DNA from: Gaiellales bacterium
GTDB taxonomy: Bacteria; Actinomycetota; Thermoleophilia; Gaiellales; JAICJC01
DNA: 64,000 nt
NCBI GenBank assembly: GCA_036273515.1
Contig: DASUHM010000057.1
Location: 1,782-65,781 of the forward strand
Direction of reading: 5' to 3'
This document shows, piece by piece, positions 5,646-60,674 of this stretch. Position numbers and translations under genes: made by a program. The notes below the pieces were generated by a model, which did no database searches, was not told the DNA's origin, and saw only the letters and a list, made by a program, of their open reading frames with translations. Position 1 is the first letter of the stretch; every line of letters begins with the position of its first letter.

Positions 5646-5858
5646 TCAGCCCTGGCGCATGCGCTCGCGCGCGCACCGGCAGCGCACCGGCACCGCCGCG
5701 CACTCGCCGCATCGGGACTGCACCTGGACGGCCGTCCAGCAGGCGAGCAGGAAGAGGCACACCGCCGCCCCGAACGCGTGGCTCGGGTCGAACGTGAAGG
5801 CCGCGTGGCCCGGGTGCTGGAGCAGGTAGTCGTGCCAGAAGTTGGACTCGCGGCTCAT
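5646..5858 (-). CDS. hypothetical small protein (one hydrophobic segment, Cys-rich C-terminus)
   Basis: 70-aa ORF with strong GC3 codon bias consistent with real coding. No family recognised. Confidence 0.45.
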   Translation of the reverse strand: MSRESNFWHDYLLQHPGHAAFTFDPSHAFGAAVCLFLLACWTAVQVQSRCGECAAVPVRCRCARERMRQG

Positions 5859-5914
5859 GGGGGGACTATCGACCGGTGGGGCCCAGACTTGACGCCCAAC
5901 TACGATCCGCCGTC

Positions 5915-8428
5915 ATGGATGCCCGCTACGACCCTGCCGCCGCCGAGGGGCCGATCTTCGCCCGCTGGGAGGAGACCGGCGTGTTCGCGGGCGGGCCGGC
6001 GGGCGGCGAGCCCTATGCGATCGCCCTGCCGCCGCCGAACATCACCGGCGACCTGCACATGGGCCACGCCCTGAACGGCTCGATCCAGGACACGCTCATC
6101 CGCCTGCGCCGCATGCAGGGCCGCGACGCCCTCTGGATCTGCGGCACCGACCATGCCTCGATCGCCCTGCACGCGGTGATCGAGAAGCAGCTGCGGGCCG
6201 AGGGCAAGACCCGCTATGACCTGGGCCGCGACCGCTTCCTGGAGCGGGTGTGGGAGTGGCGGGCGACCACCGGCGCCACGATCATCCAGCAGTTCAAGCG
6301 GCTCGGCTGCACGCTCGACTACGAGCACGAACGCTTCACGATGGACGAGGGCTACGTCCGCGCGGTGCTCGAGATGTTCGTGCGCTTGCACGCCAAGGGC
6401 TGGATCTACCGCGACAACCGGCTGATCAACTGGTGCCCGACCTGCGCCTCGACGATCTCCGACCTCGAGGTGCGCTACGAGCACGCGGTCGACACGCTCT
6501 TCGAGGTGCGCTACCGGATCAAGGACACCGACGACTTCCTGACGGTCGCGACGGTACGGCCCGAGACGATCCTGGCCGATACCGCCGTGGCGGTGCACCC
6601 GGCCGACGACCGCTACCGACACCTGGTCGGCGGCACCGCCATCGTGCCGCTGGTCGACCGCGAGGTGCCGATCATCGCCGACGAGTACGTGAAGATGGAG
6701 TTCGGCACCGGCGCGCTCAAGATCACGCCGGGGCACGACCCGAACGACTTCGAGATCGGCCGCCGCCACGGCCTGGCCGAGCTCTCGGCGATCGGCTACG
6801 ACGGCCGCATGACCGAGCTCGCGGGCGAGTTCGCCGGCCTGCCCGTCGGCGAGGCCCGCGGCCGCGTGCGGGACGCCCTCTTCGCCCGGGGGCTGATCCG
6901 CGACGAGGAGCCGTACGAGCACGAGGTCGGCCACTGCGACCGCACGGGCGACCGCATCGAGCCGCTGATCTCCCTGCAGTGGTTCATGCAGATGGACGAC
7001 CTCGCCGCCGCCGCGAACGCGCAGGTGCGGTCGGGGAACGTGCGCTTCCACCCGAAGTCGCAGGAGAACACCTACTTCAACTGGATGGACAACATCCGCC
7101 CGTGGTGCATCTCGCGCCAGCTCTGGTGGGGGCACCGGATCCCCGTGTGGTACTGCCCGGACGGCCACCACACGGTCGCGGCGGAGGAGCCCGCAGCCTG
7201 CGCGACCTGCGGGTCGGCGAAGCTCGAGCGCGACCCGGACATCCTCGATACGTGGTTCTCGTCGGCGCTCTGGCCGTTCGCCACCATCGGCTGGCCCGGG
7301 GAGGACCCGCGGCTCGAGAGGTACTACCCGGGCCACGTCGACTCGACCGCCCGCGACATCATCAACCTGTGGGTGGCGCGGATGCTGATGATGGGGCTCG
7401 AGTTCATGGGTGAGATCCCGTTCTCGGACGTGATCATTCACTCCACCATCCAGGCCCCGGACGGCCGGCGGATGTCGAAGTCGCTCGGCACGGGCGTCGA
7501 CCCGCTCGACCTCGTGAGCCGCTTCGGCGCCGACGCCACCCGCTACGGGCTCATGAAGATGAGCTCGACCCAGGACGTGCGCTTTTCGGAGGGCATGATC
7601 GCCGAGGGGGCGAAGTTCGCGAACAAGCTCTGGAACGCCGCTCGCTTCGTGATCACGCAGGCCGACCTCGAGGCCGAGCCGGCGCCGGCGGGCGACGAGC
7701 CGGCCGACCGCTGGGTGCGTTCGCGCCTGGCCCGCGCGAACGAGGAGGTGCTGCGCCAGCTCGAGGCCTACGATTTCTCGGCCGCGGTGAAGGCCCTCTA
7801 CGCGTTCGTCTTCGACTACTGCGACTGGTACATCGAGGCCTCCAAGCCGCGGCTCGCGGGCGACGACGCGGCCGCCCGCCGGGCCGTCTCGGCGAACCTG
7901 CTCTGGACGCTCGGGCGGATCCTCGCCCTGGCGCACCCGATCTGCCCGTTCGTGACCGAGGCGGTCTGGTCGCACCTGCCCGGCGAGCGCGGCCTGCTCA
8001 TGCTCGAGGCCTATCCGGCGCCCGTCGCCGAGCACCGCGACCCGCAGGCCGAGGGCGACGTGCAGGCGGCGATCGAGGCCGTGACGCAGGCCCGCTCGAC
8101 GCCGGAGGTGCGCCTGCTCCTGCCGAACGGCTTCGCGGCCGCCGCGCTCGTGCGCGCGCTGGCACCGCGGGCGACCGACGTCGTGGAGGACTCCGTCGCG
8201 TCGGTCGTGGTCGAGGCCAAGGCGGAGGATCCGGCGGTCGTGCGCGCGCGGCTCGAGCAGGACATCGCCCGCGCCCGCTCGGAGCGCGACCGCTCGCGGG
8301 CCATGCTCGCGAACGAGCGCTTCACCGCCAAGGCGCCGCCGCAGAAGGTGGAGGAGGAGCGCGCCAAGGAAGCCCGCCACACGGCCGAGCTCGAGGAGCT
8401 GGAGGCGAGGCTGCGGGAATCGGTTTGA
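5915..8428 (+). CDS. valS: valine--tRNA ligase
   Basis: Class I HIGH motif region (PPPNITGDLHMGHA), KMSKS (RMSKSLG) and a C-terminal coiled coil. ATG at 5915 is preferred over GTG at 5876 by N-terminal alignment logic. Confidence 0.95.
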   Translation: MDARYDPAAAEGPIFARWEETGVFAGGPAGGEPYAIALPPPNITGDLHMGHALNGSIQDTLIRLRRMQGRDALWICGTDHASIALHAVIEKQLRAEGKTRYDLGRDRFLERVWEWRATTGATIIQQFKRLGCTLDYEHERFTMDEGYVRAVLEMFVRLHAKGWIYRDNRLINWCPTCASTISDLEVRYEHAVDTLFEVRYRIKDTDDFLTVATVRPETILADTAVAVHPADDRYRHLVGGTAIVPLVDREVPIIADEYVKMEFGTGALKITPGHDPNDFEIGRRHGLAELSAIGYDGRMTELAGEFAGLPVGEARGRVRDALFARGLIRDEEPYEHEVGHCDRTGDRIEPLISLQWFMQMDDLAAAANAQVRSGNVRFHPKSQENTYFNWMDNIRPWCISRQLWWGHRIPVWYCPDGHHTVAAEEPAACATCGSAKLERDPDILDTWFSSALWPFATIGWPGEDPRLERYYPGHVDSTARDIINLWVARMLMMGLEFMGEIPFSDVIIHSTIQAPDGRRMSKSLGTGVDPLDLVSRFGADATRYGLMKMSSTQDVRFSEGMIAEGAKFANKLWNAARFVITQADLEAEPAPAGDEPADRWVRSRLARANEEVLRQLEAYDFSAAVKALYAFVFDYCDWYIEASKPRLAGDDAAARRAVSANLLWTLGRILALAHPICPFVTEAVWSHLPGERGLLMLEAYPAPVAEHRDPQAEGDVQAAIEAVTQARSTPEVRLLLPNGFAAAALVRALAPRATDVVEDSVASVVVEAKAEDPAVVRARLEQDIARARSERDRSRAMLANERFTAKAPPQKVEEERAKEARHTAELEELEARLRESV

Positions 8429-52134: not shown

Positions 52135-53259
52135 ATGCCGACCACCATCACACCCGCTGAGCTCGACCGCGCGCTCGCGCTGCGCGACCTGTCCGACCCC
52201 GACCGCGGCCCGCACGCGATGCAGCTGCTCGTCGACGCGATCCGCGCTGCCCTGGAAGGGGCGTGGGGCTGCCCCGTGCGCACCTACCGGGCCGATCCCG
52301 TCGTCACCGTCGAGGACAACTACGGCGTCCTCGGCTACCCGCCCGACGCGCCCGCCCGGGAGGCGCGCTACTCCCGGTACGTCGACGCCGGGCGCATGCT
52401 GCGGGCGCACACCACCGCCATGGTGCCGGCCGCCCTGCGTGCGCTCGCGGACACATCCGACGTCGTCGTCGCCTGTCCCGGGCTCGTCTACCGGCGCGAC
52501 GTCGTCGACCGCCTGCACGTCGGCGAGCCGCACCAGCTCGACCTGTGGCGGGCGCGCCGCGACGCTCCCCTGACCGAGGACGACCTCGACGAGATGATCG
52601 ACCTGGTCGTCGGGGCGGTGCTGCCCGGCGCCAACTGGCACATGCTGCGAACGACGCATCCGTACACGACCGCAGGCCGCGAGGTCGAGGTGCGCGTGGG
52701 GGAGGAGTGGGTCGAGCTGCTCGAGTGCGGCCTGGCCGGGGAGCACGTGCTCGCCGCCGGCGGCCTGAACGGCGACCGCTGGACCGGGCTGGCGCTCGGG
52801 CTCGGCCTCGACCGCGCGCTGATGCTGCGCAAGGGCATCGGCGACATCCGCCTGCTCCGCTCGGACGACGCCCGGGTGGCCGGCCAGATGCGCACGCTCG
52901 AGCCCTACCGCGAGGTGAGCGCGATGCCGGCCACGGGCCGCGACCTGTCGATCGCCGTCGCGGCCGGCGTCGACGACGAGGAGCTGGGCGACCGCGTCCG
53001 CCGGGCGCTCGATCCTCGCGAGCTGGACGCGGTCGAGGAGGTGCGCGTGGTGGGTCAGACGCCGGGCTCCGAGCTGCCGCCGCAGGCGATCGCGCGCATC
53101 GGCCTGCGGCCGGGGCAGAAAAACGTGCTCGTGCGGCTCGTCCTGCGCCATCCCACGCGGACGCTGACCGCGGAGGAGGGAAACGCGATCCGAAACCGGG
53201 TCTACGCGGCTGTCCATGAGGGCGATGCGCACCAGTGGGCGGGTACGGTTGGCGGATGA
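52135..53259 (+). CDS. PheS-like class II aminoacyl-tRNA synthetase core fused to a C-terminal FDX-ACB-like domain (monomeric, mitochondrial-PheRS-like architecture)
   Basis: Motif 2-like GLVYRRDVVDRLHVGEPHQLDLW, motif 3-like GLALGLGLDRALMLRKGIGDIRLLRSDD, and a C-terminal ~95 aa (RDLSIAV...NVLVRLVLRHPTRTLTAEE) resembling the ferredoxin-fold anticodon-binding domain. Confidence 0.65.
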   Translation: MPTTITPAELDRALALRDLSDPDRGPHAMQLLVDAIRAALEGAWGCPVRTYRADPVVTVEDNYGVLGYPPDAPAREARYSRYVDAGRMLRAHTTAMVPAALRALADTSDVVVACPGLVYRRDVVDRLHVGEPHQLDLWRARRDAPLTEDDLDEMIDLVVGAVLPGANWHMLRTTHPYTTAGREVEVRVGEEWVELLECGLAGEHVLAAGGLNGDRWTGLALGLGLDRALMLRKGIGDIRLLRSDDARVAGQMRTLEPYREVSAMPATGRDLSIAVAAGVDDEELGDRVRRALDPRELDAVEEVRVVGQTPGSELPPQAIARIGLRPGQKNVLVRLVLRHPTRTLTAEEGNAIRNRVYAAVHEGDAHQWAGTVGG

Positions 53260-56981: not shown

Positions 56982-57362
56982 ATGTCCGACTCGGGCGCGG
57001 GCCCCGACATCGTCGTCGCGGCCATGTTCGCGGTCGCGGCGATCCTGGGCGTCCTGGCGTTGCTGCCCGAGGGTCGGCTTGCGAATGCGGTCGGCCCGGT
57101 GGCCGCAGCGCTGGTCGTGCTCGCCGTCGCGGGCGCGGCCGCGATCGCCACGATGAAGGCGAGCGTCTACGCCGACGGCACGAGCCACTGGCACCACATG
57201 TCGCAGCTGCTCGTCCTGGCCGGCGGCGCGGTCTCGCTGGCATCGGCGGCCGTGCTCTTCTCCGCGCAACGCGTCGCCGTGCTGCGCGCCGGCCTGGCCA
57301 CCGGCTCTGCCGGCACGCTGATGCTCGCGATCAGCCCGTTCACCTACCAGACGCCCGGCTGA
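56982..57362 (+). CDS. hypothetical membrane protein (4 TM)
   Basis: 126-aa hydrophobic ORF starting 5 nt after the previous gene. Confidence 0.55.
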   Translation: MSDSGAGPDIVVAAMFAVAAILGVLALLPEGRLANAVGPVAAALVVLAVAGAAAIATMKASVYADGTSHWHHMSQLLVLAGGAVSLASAAVLFSAQRVAVLRAGLATGSAGTLMLAISPFTYQTPG

Positions 57363-57380
57363 CAGCCTGGAGCCGCGACG

Positions 57381-57545
57381 TCAGGTCGCCGGTCGTCGCG
57401 GTGCCGCGACCGAGGCGGCGATCGCGGCGAGGGCGGCGATCACGAAGCCAGAGTCATCCCGGCGCATGCGGCCGTCGTCGCCATCCAGCCGGCGATCAGC
57501 CGGAGAACCGATACCTGCCTGCGTTCCGTCATCTGCGGGTTTCAT
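57381..57545 (-). CDS. candidate small tail-anchored peptide downstream of the reverse transcriptase (speculative)
   Basis: 54 aa: MKPADDGTQAGIGSPADRRLDGDDGRMRRDDSGFVIAALAAIAASVAAPRRPAT. Acidic N-terminal part plus one TM helix. Starts 35 nt after the RT stop. The first ~15 codons are unusually A/T-ending for this genome. Confidence 0.25.
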   Translation of the reverse strand: MKPADDGTQAGIGSPADRRLDGDDGRMRRDDSGFVIAALAAIAASVAAPRRPAT

Positions 57546-57580
57546 CGTCCCCGGGCAAGACGAGTTGAACCGCTCTTGCG

Positions 57581-58921
57581 TCAAGTCCAGTCGATCTCGG
57601 CTAGGGCGCGTCGCAGCTTCGCGCCGCGGGCCGGGTTCAGCGCCTCCACCCAGCCGATCCGGCCGAGCAGGTGGGCGCGAAGATCGGGCACACCGGCCCG
57701 GTTCGCCGCCGCCGGCCCGCGCGTGGCCGCCTCGTGCAGCGCGGCCCGCAGCCGGTCGTAGTCGTCCCGCGGCGCGTTCGTGCGCGTGTTCACGACGATC
57801 CCGCACACCCGCTGGCGGCCGGCCCGGGTCGCGAGCGCCGATTTGCGCGGATTGAGCCGGAAGCCCTCGTCGGTGACGATCGCGGCGACCGCGCGCCGCA
57901 GCGCAGGCGCCCGTGCGTTGAGCTTCCGCCCGCCCGAGAACGCCAGGTCGTCCGCGTAGCGCGAGTAGGTCGCCCGGAACGCGTCGGCCAGGCCCGCCAG
58001 GCGGCAGTCGAGCCGGTACGCGCACAGGTTGGCGAGGGCGGGGGAGGTGGGCGCGCCCTGCGGCAGGTGCGGCGCCGCGAGCAGCCGGCCCATGCGCGCG
58101 TGCGCCTGGAGCGCCGCCGGGTCGGATGGCCGCGGCGCCGCCGCCCACGCGTCCGCCGGGACGACGTTCGTGGTGAGGCCGGTCAGGTGGTGGGCGACGG
58201 ACTCCGGGTAGCCGGCCGTGCGGAAGACGCCGTAGATGCGGCCGGCGCGGATCGACGCGAAGAAGTCCTCGAGGTCGAAGCGCAGGACGACCTCCCGCCC
58301 CGTGTGCCGGCGGGCATGGGTGACCGCCGAGTGCCCACGGCGGAATCCCTGCGCCGCCTCGTGCGGCGGGATCGCATCGAGGATGCCGTGCAGGATCCGC
58401 CGCTGCGTCTCCTTGAGCAGCGCCTTGGGCTGCTCGATCAGCCGCGGCGGCCCGCCCGGGCGCGCAAGCCAGCGGTAGCGGTAGTTGCGCAGGCGGAGGG
58501 CGGCCCGGCGCTCGAGGCTGCGGCGGTCGGCCAGCCAGGCGAGCTCGCCCGGGTGGAGGTCGAGGAGCGCCGCCAGGTCGGCCGGCGCCGCGGCGGCCGG
58601 CACCGTCCAGCGGGTCGGCCCCATCTCGGGGACGAAGTGCGCCGCCGGGACGTGGCGAGGCGGCTTCGGGAGCCGGCCGCCTTCGTCGAGCGTCAAGAGC
58701 GACCAGTCGATGATGGCCACGAGCGCCCGCGGCGCGTCGGCCGGCCGGGTCGGGTGGGCGGCACGCGCGTCGTCCACGACGACGCCGAGCCAGCGCGGCC
58801 GCCGACCGAGGGTCTCGGCCGCCCGGCTCGCCATCGCGGCGCGCTCCCACTCGCCCGCCAGGAAGGCCGCCGCCAGCGCCCTGGCGACGCCGGTGCGCGT
58901 CTGGCGCGGCCAGCTGCTCAT
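57581..58921 (-). CDS. retron-type reverse transcriptase with N-terminal extension
   Basis: 446 aa from ATG 58921. RT motifs: RLIEQP, GFRRGHSAVTHARRH (NAxxH-like), LRFDLEDFFASI, LPQGAPTSPALANL, SRYADDLAFS (YADD encoded at 57947..57958), RLNPRKS and RQRVCGIVVN (VTG-like). Confidence 0.88.
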   Translation of the reverse strand: MSSWPRQTRTGVARALAAAFLAGEWERAAMASRAAETLGRRPRWLGVVVDDARAAHPTRPADAPRALVAIIDWSLLTLDEGGRLPKPPRHVPAAHFVPEMGPTRWTVPAAAAPADLAALLDLHPGELAWLADRRSLERRAALRLRNYRYRWLARPGGPPRLIEQPKALLKETQRRILHGILDAIPPHEAAQGFRRGHSAVTHARRHTGREVVLRFDLEDFFASIRAGRIYGVFRTAGYPESVAHHLTGLTTNVVPADAWAAAPRPSDPAALQAHARMGRLLAAPHLPQGAPTSPALANLCAYRLDCRLAGLADAFRATYSRYADDLAFSGGRKLNARAPALRRAVAAIVTDEGFRLNPRKSALATRAGRQRVCGIVVNTRTNAPRDDYDRLRAALHEAATRGPAAANRAGVPDLRAHLLGRIGWVEALNPARGAKLRRALAEIDWT

Positions 58922-59146
58922 CGCGGGGCATCCGGCGGCGCGCCCCGACTGCTCCTGTCGTGCGTGCGCGCACCTGCGACGGAGGCGCAGCGAAGCGCAT
59001 GCGATGCGATGTGTGGTGACACCGGTTCCCCCGGGGGTGCCCCGGAGAGACCCGCCAGTGCGGGCCGGCTCGGGACGCGTCGCCGGACGCTGCCAAGATA
59101 CCCCAGCCGCAACGGGGGGTTGCGCCCACACGTATCCTTATGTTCG
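58922..59146 (-). ncRNA. candidate RT-associated structured ncRNA (msr/msd-like) region, boundaries unknown
   Basis: 225-nt non-coding gap directly upstream of the RT on the same strand. It holds several GC-rich hairpins (for example CGCAAC-CCCCC-GTTGCG, GCGTC-CGGC-GACGC, CCGGGG-CAC-CCCCGG) and a possible long-range pairing GTGTGGGCGC / GCGCACGCAC about 160 nt apart. Confidence 0.3.
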
Positions 59147-59884
59147 ATGGTTCTTCGGGTCTGGGTCGCGGTCGTCCTCGCCGTGGTTGCGTGCAGCGCG
59201 TGTGCCGGCGGATCCTCGAAGGAGGCCGCCGGGAGACAGCCCGCCGCGATGGTTGCCGCCGACGGCGCCGCGCCCGTCCAGCCGGTCGCGCCCCGGGCCT
59301 GGCACGTCCCCGCGAGACCGCGTGGAGCGGGCGCCTACCTGATGGCGCGCCTGCGCCGGCCGCTCCACACCCGGTTTGGGATCGTGCATGCGAAGACGCA
59401 GTTCGACGGGCCGGTATGGGTGCCGATCCTGCGCCACCACGGCGCCCAGGCCTCGCTGCTCGTGCCTCTGCGGCCGTACGGCCGGGTCGTGCACGCCGAC
59501 GTCCGCAAGCTCCAGCTGCGCTGGTCGCGTGTCCGCGTCGTCATCAACCTGGCAACGTCGCGCCTCGCGGTCTTCCGCGGCCGCCGCGCCGTCGGCGCCT
59601 TCCCGGTCGGACAGGGGACGGCGCTCACGCCCACGCCGACCGGCCGCTTCTTCGTCACCGACAGGCTCCAGTTCGGCCTCGGCAGCCCCTACTTCCCGTT
59701 CGCGCTCGGCCTCTCGGCCCACCAGAAGCACCTCTCGCCGACCTGGATCGGCGGCGACCAGATCGCCATCCATCCCGGCCCGATGGGCCACGTCAGCAAC
59801 GGCTGCATCCATGTCGGCCCCGCCGCGATCCGCGTCCTTCGCCGCATCGCGCCGCTGGGGACGTACGTCATCGTGCGGAGCTGA
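59147..59884 (+). CDS. L,D-transpeptidase (YkuD) family lipoprotein
   Basis: 245 aa with a lipobox-like signal (VLAVVACSAC) and the catalytic IHPGPMGHVSNGCIHV motif. Confidence 0.85.
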   Translation: MVLRVWVAVVLAVVACSACAGGSSKEAAGRQPAAMVAADGAAPVQPVAPRAWHVPARPRGAGAYLMARLRRPLHTRFGIVHAKTQFDGPVWVPILRHHGAQASLLVPLRPYGRVVHADVRKLQLRWSRVRVVINLATSRLAVFRGRRAVGAFPVGQGTALTPTPTGRFFVTDRLQFGLGSPYFPFALGLSAHQKHLSPTWIGGDQIAIHPGPMGHVSNGCIHVGPAAIRVLRRIAPLGTYVIVRS

Positions 59885-59885
59885 G

Positions 59886-60674
59886 CTACATACCCATCGG
59901 CATCGTCGGCCCGTGCAGGCCCGGGATCAGGCCGGGGTGCGACGGGGCGAGCAGCCCCAGCACGATCAGGGCTATGCCGACGGCGTACGCGGTCGCCCGG
60001 CCGTAGCGCCATGTCCGCTCGAGCACGACGACGACGGCCAGGGCGGCCATCCAGCGCAGATCCATGACCCCGAGGGCGATCAGCGCCACCATCAAGCCCC
60101 AGCAGCAGCCGACGCAGTAGGCCCCGTGGTAGAGGCCGGCGTGGACGTCGCGCAGCGGGCCGCGATAGCTCCCCACATGGAGCAGGACGCCCATCGGCGA
60201 GCGGCAGTGCGAGAGGCAGCGGTTCTTCGCCGGGGTGAACTGGTAGACCCCGACGGCCACGAGCACGGCGGCGCCGACCCAGCGGGCGGCGTCCGGGTCG
60301 CGGGCCGCCAGCCGGCCGGCGACGTCGGCGATGGCGAACGCGGCCAGGCCGAACGCCGCCCAGGCGCTCAGGTAGCCGGCGACCAGCCCCGCAACCCGGG
60401 CGGCCCGGGCTTGTGGCTGCGCCGTCTGCATCCGGATCGTGCGCGCGTAGAGCCCTCCGACCGGTGCGACCGCGGGCAGCATCATCGCCGCCATCATGAC
60501 CGTCCAGAACGCCAGGAACCCGGCCAGGCCGTAGCCCATCGTGCCCGGCACCGGGACCATCCCGTTCGCCTCGCGGATCACGGCCAGCCAGGCCACGGCC
60601 GCCACCGCGATGATGATCGCGGCCGCGGCGCCGCTGCGCGACCACGACGGCGCCTGCCGGCGCGCCTGTGTCAT
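59886..60674 (-). CDS. DUF2182 family metal-binding membrane protein
   Basis: 262 aa with WTVMMAAMMLP, YQFTPAKNRCLSHCRSP and GAYCVGCCWGLM motifs. ATGA overlap with the amidohydrolase stop. Confidence 0.75.
   Translation of the reverse strand: MTQARRQAPSWSRSGAAAAIIIAVAAVAWLAVIREANGMVPVPGTMGYGLAGFLAFWTVMMAAMMLPAVAPVGGLYARTIRMQTAQPQARAARVAGLVAGYLSAWAAFGLAAFAIADVAGRLAARDPDAARWVGAAVLVAVGVYQFTPAKNRCLSHCRSPMGVLLHVGSYRGPLRDVHAGLYHGAYCVGCCWGLMVALIALGVMDLRWMAALAVVVVLERTWRYGRATAYAVGIALIVLGLLAPSHPGLIPGLHGPTMPMGM

Follow-up and report, generated by a model that had tools for sequence, protein, structure and literature searches.

A probable stand-alone retron with a covarying msr-msd-like RNA and no linked effector in a Gaiellales genome

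Introduction

To our knowledge, every characterised retron is a three-part system, in which the complex of a reverse transcriptase (RT) with its multicopy single-stranded DNA (msDNA) restrains a linked effector. The present study deals with a locus of two recognisable parts, a retron-type RT gene and a structured non-coding RNA (ncRNA) directly upstream of it, both on the minus strand of a 64,000-nucleotide stretch of DNA (the whole stretch analysed, hereafter the window) from contig DASUHM010000057.1 of a Gaiellales bacterium (assembly GCA_036273515.1).

Cassettes of this kind have been catalogued before. Mestre et al. 2020 (PMC7736814) described their clade 11, which in their data was all but confined to Actinobacteria, as a stand-alone (msr-msd)-RT arrangement with detectable ncRNA structures and no associated protein cluster, possibly vertically inherited and domesticated. 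A preprint (bioRxiv 10.64898/2026.05.14.725207) reports a Clade11-A from Pseudomonadota, Actinomycetota and Acidobacteriota, to which it assigns a low novelty priority. An experimental census, in which retrons of every RT clade were sampled, detected RT-DNA from all of them except clades 3 and 4. A search of the literature on clade 11 and on actinobacterial retrons turned up no described function.

The locus shares with clade 11 an RT bearing regions X and Y, a contiguous upstream msr-msd-like ncRNA, the absence of a protein cluster, signs of vertical inheritance, an occurrence in Actinomycetota, Pseudomonadota and Acidobacteriota, and a full-length match to the PADLOC model RT_other (540 bits); no difference has been found so far in this comparison, which was made by description and by PADLOC profiles. 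As clade 11 membership would imply, the untyped retron RT profiles score best (540 and 512 bits, with the top numbered type at 285 bits), and in 82 loci the cassette is a stand-alone one. By description and profile, the locus is most likely a clade 11 stand-alone retron. A preliminary description, made from the sequence of the window, had considered such arrangements poorly described in actinobacteria-like genomes; in fact, the lineage is already in the catalogues of both sources cited above, and it is not confined to actinobacteria. The locus adds a Gaiellales/Solirubrobacterales-like member to this lineage and no new principle. The present analysis contributes the exact boundaries of the ncRNA, its covariation-supported structure, candidate positions for priming and for the template, and the names of culturable hosts.

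Overall, we consider it probable that the locus is a functional stand-alone retron, likely of clade 11, in which an msr-msd-type ncRNA and the RT form one transcription unit with no effector encoded in cis. Unlike tripartite retrons, the lineage keeps its RT and ncRNA under strong constraint without a linked effector, and its function, once known, would settle the question raised by Mestre et al. of whether retrons have been domesticated for non-defence roles.

Sequence and family assignment of the RT

The longest frame of the RT open reading frame (ORF) spans 57581..59131, and the 446-aa product is read from an ATG at 58921, which agrees with the N-termini of 22 homologues. The full set of RT motifs quoted in the preliminary description was found in this product, including the YADD motif at the position given there; across the family both of its aspartates are kept in 202 of 202 sequences, the tyrosine in 201 and the alanine in 200. 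Residues H206, D324, D325 and Q288 are invariant in all 202 family sequences, and D216, G374 and A203 are kept in 201, 200 and 184 of them, respectively. The two retron-specific elements, region X (xAxxH) and region Y (V-C/A/T-G), are both present in the altered forms reported earlier, HARRH (residues 202-206) and VCG (residues 372-374), their diagnostic residues being fixed at H206 and, with 200 of the 202 sequences, at G374. Pfam recognises RVT_1 alone in the protein (residues 157-374). Between the fingers and palm motifs, a conserved insertion of ∼35 residues (residues ∼250-285, positions 58067-58174, with W259, H274, R276 and R279) has no counterpart in the RT of retron Ec86. In the related locus L002, which comes from a metagenome-assembled genome, the RT match begins only at residue 60 (5823-6001 of that locus), with an in-frame stop upstream and an intact ncRNA; this shortening is probably due to a frameshift or an assembly error.

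The retron RT models of PADLOC match the protein with E-values ranging from 1e-162 to 1e-36. The model RT_other covers it over its full length (residues 4-446, E 1.3e-162, 540 bits), RT_outgroup, which is labelled retron, scores 512 bits (E 3.2e-154), and RT_XIII, the best of the 13 numbered types, matches from residue 106 on (E 2e-85, 285 bits). The NCBIfam retron models give ∼160 bits, and none of the other NCBIfam models considered reached its cut-off: group_II_RT_mat scores 37.1 bits versus 300, Drt2 26.7 bits versus 390, and Drt3a 20.9 bits versus 200. When the family profile was compared with solved sequences, the RT of retron Ec86 came out closest (E 1.6e-46), followed by those of Ec67 and Ec78, with group II intron RTs, those of diversity-generating retroelements (DGR) and those of defence-associated RT (DRT) systems at E 1e-7 or worse. 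The AlphaFold2 model of the RT (predicted local distance difference test, pLDDT, of 85) gives the same ranking by fold: in a Foldseek search the Ec86 RT is closest (E 1e-17), the top 18 matches are retron RTs, and the DRT2 and DRT9 structures rank far below them. A group II intron RT/maturase identity was rejected in view of its score far under the cut-off and the lack of an Rfam intron match, and a DRT2 or DRT3 (UG RT) identity in view of the wide margin by which both cut-offs were missed. Overall, profile scores and the predicted fold argue that the RT belongs to the retron RTs and not to those of group II introns, DGR or DRT systems. The retron-type call of the preliminary description stands on far better matches to retron models and solved retron RTs than to anything else; the profile search proposed there as a check put retron models on top, and no grouping with group II or DGR RTs appeared.

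Of the numbered types, type XIII (Mx162/Mx65/Sa163, RT clade 10) deserves a closer comparison. Apart from being the best-scoring one, it has a profile that leaves ∼100 N-terminal positions unaligned, and so apparently has an N-terminal extension of its own, and vertical inheritance has been reported for it (PMC7736814). On the other hand, its N-terminal region does not align with the present one, the msDNA of Mx162 is 162 nt by name compared with an msd-like stem of ∼41 nt here, and type XIII retrons carry linked SWIM/winged-helix (cluster 114) and HEAT/ARM partner genes. No such genes adjoin the present RT, the neighbours of which are YkuD, a membrane ORF and aldehyde dehydrogenase (ALDH) genes, and type XIII identity was rejected on this ground. 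Retron-Eco1 (Ec86, type II-A3) has the closest solved RT by both sequence and fold and uses the same logic of a1/a2 repeats and a branching G, but its RT is only 320 aa long, has neither the N-terminal bundle nor the insertion at residues 250-285, and works with a nucleoside deoxyribosyltransferase (NDT)-like effector. The Retron-Eco5 (Ec107)-like orphan branch of clade 2 resembles our locus in the lack of a consistently linked effector; it differs in taxonomic range and in RT clade (170 bits only with the PADLOC model RT_Ec107-like).

The N-terminal extension of about 110 residues, noted earlier as not assignable to any domain, is real (∼100-110 residues) and conserved, its conserved residues including W25, R33, W44, P60 and R65. 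Its helices are modelled with pLDDT values of 85-96 and are followed by a flexible linker; the region has no Pfam match and no fold match in the PDB (best Foldseek E 2.3). As modelled, the extension is a small helical bundle with no enzyme fold. A fused effector was rejected for this region, given the confident four-helix model, the lack of a PDB or Pfam relative and its absence in Amycolatopsis. In the Amycolatopsis members of the family (loci L049, L058, L063, L069 and L081, at ∼5780-6030), the ncRNA abuts the RT at the equivalent of residues 91-115, and the RTs of this subgroup have no N-terminal four-helix bundle; the bundle appears dispensable in this one sublineage.

Structure and conservation of the upstream RNA

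The intergenic region upstream of the RT, described earlier as a structured leader of 225 nt, contains a covarying ncRNA with the retron msr-msd architecture, in which the a1/a2 repeats enclose msr hairpins and an msd-like stem (Table 1). A covariance model (R1), built from ten sequences and searched in 100 sources from several phyla, found the ncRNA directly upstream of the RT and on the same strand in 88 of them, the median offset from the end of the ncRNA to the N-terminus of the RT being ∼0 nt; most of the remaining 12 sources gave weaker matches at the same position. The conserved upstream non-coding region that the preliminary description had proposed to look for in homologues is thus present. 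The model also matches four further independent loci, Burkholderia cenocepacia among them, and a sequence-based hidden Markov model locates the ncRNA ahead of the RT gene at 61 loci. Over the ∼170 nt upstream of the gene, identity amounts to 87-98% in eleven close relatives (RTs 67-92% identical), compared with only 58-85% at the third codon positions of their RT genes, so that the ncRNA is more conserved than the coding sequence. An Rfam scan of positions 57200-59400 at a permissive E-value returned no ncRNA family, the only match being a chance one to a long non-coding RNA (E 4.3).

In the alignment of the 88 sequences, standard pairs fill 92.5% of the cells (70% in shuffled alignments and 35-47% with slid partners), compensatory changes are seen at 50 of 53 pairs, and cells with double changes number 861 compared with 215 in the shuffles. 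An independent run of RNAalifold recovered the a1/a2 stem, hairpins 1 and 2, and the two-part distal stem. The closing stem comprises 18 bp with 95-97% of cells paired (helices 2-3). In msr hairpin 1 (helices 4-5) 93% of cells are paired and all pairs show compensatory changes, and in msr hairpin 2 (helix 6), the sequence of which is conserved in the 88 loci, 99.4% are paired; hairpin 2 is likely the element recognised by the RT. The two parts of the msd-like stem (helices 9-10) have 95.5% and 97.5% of cells paired, with compensatory changes at 12 of 12 pairs. A third hairpin, predicted by single-sequence folding at 59003-59027 (helices 7-8), was rejected as a family feature, as just 64-69% of its cells are paired and RNAalifold dropped it on the 88 sequences.

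At the junction of the closing stem, an AG following a1 and a GU preceding a2 are each at least 90% conserved in the 88 sequences. The A of the former pairs with U58948, and the two G residues, G59069 and G58949 (each at least 90% conserved), stand opposed to one another. An opposed pair of conserved G residues at this junction is a hallmark of msr-msd transcripts (PMC7736814). Further upstream, the TATCTT hexamer is kept in close relatives (84-92% RT identity) and partly in loci L001 and L003. Scans for sigma-70 promoters and intrinsic terminators found nothing, a result that is uninformative at 74% GC.

Table 1. Features of the RT-ncRNA locus (window coordinates).
Feature	Coordinates	Strand	Basis or remark
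RT coding sequence, retron-type, 446 aa (stop included)	57581..58921	-	ORF and homologue-matched start
N-terminal extension of the RT, residues 1-112: predicted four-helix bundle (6-80) and low-confidence linker	58586..58921	-	AlphaFold2 model, conservation
YADD catalytic motif, residues 322-325	57947..57958	-	read from sequence
Retron-like ncRNA (msr-msd), ∼168 nt	58926..59093	-	covariance model, covariation; ends 5 nt before RT start codon
TATCTT, TANNNT-type -10-like hexamer	59095..59100	-	ends 7 nt upstream of a1; putative promoter role
a1 arm of closing stem	59070..59088	-	pairs with a2; 16/16 scored pairs with compensatory changes
Unpaired, conserved G immediately 3' of a1, candidate for the branching (priming) G	59069	-	conservation
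msr hairpin 1, length variable over the family	59049..59066	-	helices 4-5 covary
msr hairpin 2, CUCCGGGG-CAC-CCCCGGGG	59029..59047	-	near-invariant across phyla
Variable segment, hairpin 2 to msd-like stem	59003..59027	-	predicted hairpin weakly supported
Two-part msd-like stem-loop, predicted msDNA template	58962..59002	-	helices 9-10 covary
Conserved G across from the candidate branching G; base predicted to be templated first	58949	-	conservation
U pairing with A59070	58948	-	RNAalifold, conservation
a2 arm of closing stem	58930..58947	-	covariation, RNAalifold
54-aa ORF on the RT strand	57381..57545	-	hydrophobic C-terminus

Genomic context and the search for a partner gene

The RT gene is flanked by a divergent gene for a YkuD L,D-transpeptidase, which starts at 59147, and by a convergent 126-aa membrane ORF, which ends at 57362 behind an ALDH-ALDH-DeoC block; these are the L,D-transpeptidase and the ALDH-operon membrane protein of the preliminary description. 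Stop-to-stop ORFs of at least 80 aa were collected from 82 loci and clustered by all-against-all BLASTP. The RT and its antisense shadow ORFs aside, no cluster of neighbour ORFs occurs in more than 9 of the 82 loci, and no integrase or transposase recurs among them. The neighbourhoods of called genes are ordinary and unlike from lineage to lineage, and none of the ten nearest genes in the window matches any PADLOC defence model. Neither the linked effector gene nor the fused effector domain that marks a tripartite retron is found at the RT locus, and the RT is as solitary as it had seemed from the window. The neighbourhood comparison suggested earlier has thus returned no conserved partner gene (82 loci) and a conserved upstream ncRNA (88 of 100 sources), and of the options considered at that stage, an RT-plus-ncRNA-only system is the one that the architecture supports.

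The 54-aa ORF lies in a 219-nt spacer behind the RT stop (57363-57581) that was seen in the present window only: none of the related loci fetched, not even those at 92% RT identity, contains an equivalent, and the spacer is not repeated in the window. The ORF has no Pfam or PADLOC match. It does exist on the RT strand as previously described, but it was rejected as an effector, being missing from all relatives and without a family match.

Selection, distribution and inheritance

The ratio of nonsynonymous to synonymous substitution rates (dN/dS) of the RT against seven relatives is 0.21-0.42. Together with the conservation of the ncRNA, the substitution pattern indicates that the RT-ncRNA cassette is under purifying selection.

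The gene block LeuRS (leucyl-tRNA synthetase)-DUF2269-PilZ-amidohydrolase-YkuD-RT-ALDH-ALDH-DeoC is kept in genomes with RTs 67-72% identical to ours. Across these syntenic genomes and another two close relatives, the RTs are 67-78% identical, which is inside the range of the flanking genes (YkuD ∼60%, amidohydrolase ∼77%, PilZ ∼80%, ALDH ∼90% and DeoC ∼92%). A neighbour-joining tree of the RT core largely sorts the sequences by host phylum or order, with groups of Acidobacteriota, Betaproteobacteria, Planctomycetota, Verrucomicrobiota and individual actinobacterial orders and few exceptions. Overall, the cassette appears to be inherited largely vertically, in ordinary chromosomal contexts.

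At E ≤ 1e-5 the family counts 7,677 database proteins. It occurs in at least 593 representative species, the hosts ranging from Actinomycetota to Acidobacteriota, Planctomycetota, Myxococcota and Burkholderiales. No family member was found in the phage collection. In plasmid records, close members (∼52-53% identity) occur only on ∼1-Mb Burkholderia replicons, and weaker relatives of the RT on a few small actinobacterial plasmids. A mobile-element origin was rejected, given the lack of a recurrent integrase or transposase, the lack of phage members and a plasmid carriage nearly confined to the ∼1-Mb Burkholderia replicons.

One of these Burkholderia loci (L118; B. cenocepacia NZ_CP091014.1, 4346-5855) lies on a replicon of 1.1 Mb listed as a plasmid and encodes an RT of 53% identity with an upstream ncRNA scoring 41 bits; similar copies are found in B. 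arboris, B. pyrrocinia and Burkholderia sp. FXe9, all genetically tractable hosts. The culturable carriers include Solirubrobacter soli DSM 22325, Arthrobacter agilis DSM 20550, B. cenocepacia, and Myxococcus and Pyxidicoccus species.

Proposed mode of action and alternative explanations

For a functional stand-alone retron, the ncRNA (59093..58926, minus strand) and, 5 nt later, the RT (58921..57581, minus strand) would be read as one transcription unit from a start near G59088, downstream of the TATCTT hexamer (59100-59095). As the covariation suggests, the RNA would fold with a1 (59088-59070) paired to a2 (58947-58930), enclosing msr hairpins 1 and 2 and the two-part msd stem, and the RT would bind the near-invariant hairpin 2. 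By analogy with characterised retrons, priming could proceed from the 2'-OH of the unpaired G59069; copying would then begin at G58949 and continue along the msd stem to yield a branched msDNA of ∼55-80 nt. Because no effector is encoded in cis, the functional product would be the RT-msDNA/RNA particle itself, most likely in concert with a host or partner factor that is unlinked. Its role could be defence with a trans partner, that of a self-sufficient system, or a domesticated task outside defence.

Several points weigh against this interpretation. The priming G, the template limits and the length of the msDNA are predicted by analogy. The msd-like stem has 12 pairs, divided between two parts, and is thereby shorter than the msd stems of classical retrons, and there is no supported structure between hairpin 2 and this stem. 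The motif leading up to the candidate branching G reads C(G/A)A-G, unlike the UUA-G consensus of RT-DNA-producing retrons. The neighbour-joining tree is crude and contains cross-phylum placements (loci L056 and L007, and scattered Myxococcota), and an effector encoded in trans may be compatible with the data. Finally, the clade 11 assignment, most likely as it is, draws on a profile match and the published description.

A stricter proposition, which we put forward tentatively and hold to be more doubtful than probable, is that the cassette has no dedicated toxin partner at all, the RT-msDNA particle serving in a housekeeping or regulatory role or in self-sufficient immunity. If true, the lineage would be one of domesticated retrons whose function differs from that of the tripartite, toxin-antitoxin-like retrons.

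The opposite proposition, a tripartite retron whose toxic effector is encoded elsewhere, so that the RT-msDNA complex would restrain an unlinked toxin and free it on phage infection, is unlikely in our judgement, albeit a serious contender. Toxin restraint is how characterised retrons operate, trans effectors for orphan retrons were raised by Mestre et al. (PMC7736814), and the visible genome amounts to ∼64 kb only. Yet no neighbour recurs in 82 loci of several phyla, and linked modules of the toxin-antitoxin kind are seldom unlinked in every lineage. Moreover, most hosts of orphan retrons have no homologues of known retron-associated proteins (PMC7736814), and the stable housekeeping synteny and largely host-like tree are unlike those of defence islands.

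A self-contained immunity of RT and ncRNA, in which the cDNA product would itself be the effector as in DRT2 and DRT9 (UG RTs with an ncRNA), has the same two-component layout without a partner in its favour. It is nevertheless quite improbable: the homology between the RTs is limited to the common RT fold, as the Drt2 and Drt3a scores and the distant ranking of the DRT2 and DRT9 structures given above indicate, the ncRNA architecture is different, with a retron a1/a2 stem and opposed G residues, and the chromosomal, vertically inherited setting is unlike a defence island.

Very unlikely is a cis-regulatory or RT-binding leader that is not reverse-transcribed and controls translation or autoregulates the RT. 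The end of the ncRNA 5 nt from the start codon would allow a2 to occlude translation initiation, and msDNA is so far a prediction. On the other hand, an RT whose catalytic residues are all conserved requires a template, the RNA bears specific retron hallmarks, and the experimental census found RT-DNA from every sampled RT clade bar clades 3 and 4.

A miniature membrane effector encoded by the 54-aa ORF (57381-57545) is improbable in the extreme, since the position of this ORF just downstream on the RT strand and its hydrophobic C-terminus are outweighed by the absence of its entire 219-nt spacer from each related locus. Hardly any credence can be given either to a decaying remnant that has lost its effector, for all that an effector is missing, in view of the intact ORF, a dN/dS of 0.2-0.4, catalytic motifs essentially unchanged in 202 sequences and an ncRNA that covaries across phyla. 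The truncated or decaying retron envisaged in the preliminary description is thus contradicted; the retron may yet be a domesticated one, as mentioned alongside it.

Other features of the neighbourhood

Two further genes of the window merit mention. Between the YkuD and amidohydrolase genes, positions 59886-60674 (minus strand) encode a PpoB2/DUF2182 copper-chaperone-like membrane protein (E 1.6e-55); this gene is absent from the otherwise syntenic loci L001 and L117. At 52135-53259 (plus strand), a 374-aa protein combines the catalytic core of a class-II phenylalanyl-tRNA synthetase (PheRS; tRNA-synt_2d, E 1e-29) with an FDX-ACB anticodon-binding fold, which scores below the Pfam cut-off; its architecture is that of a single-chain PheRS-like protein.

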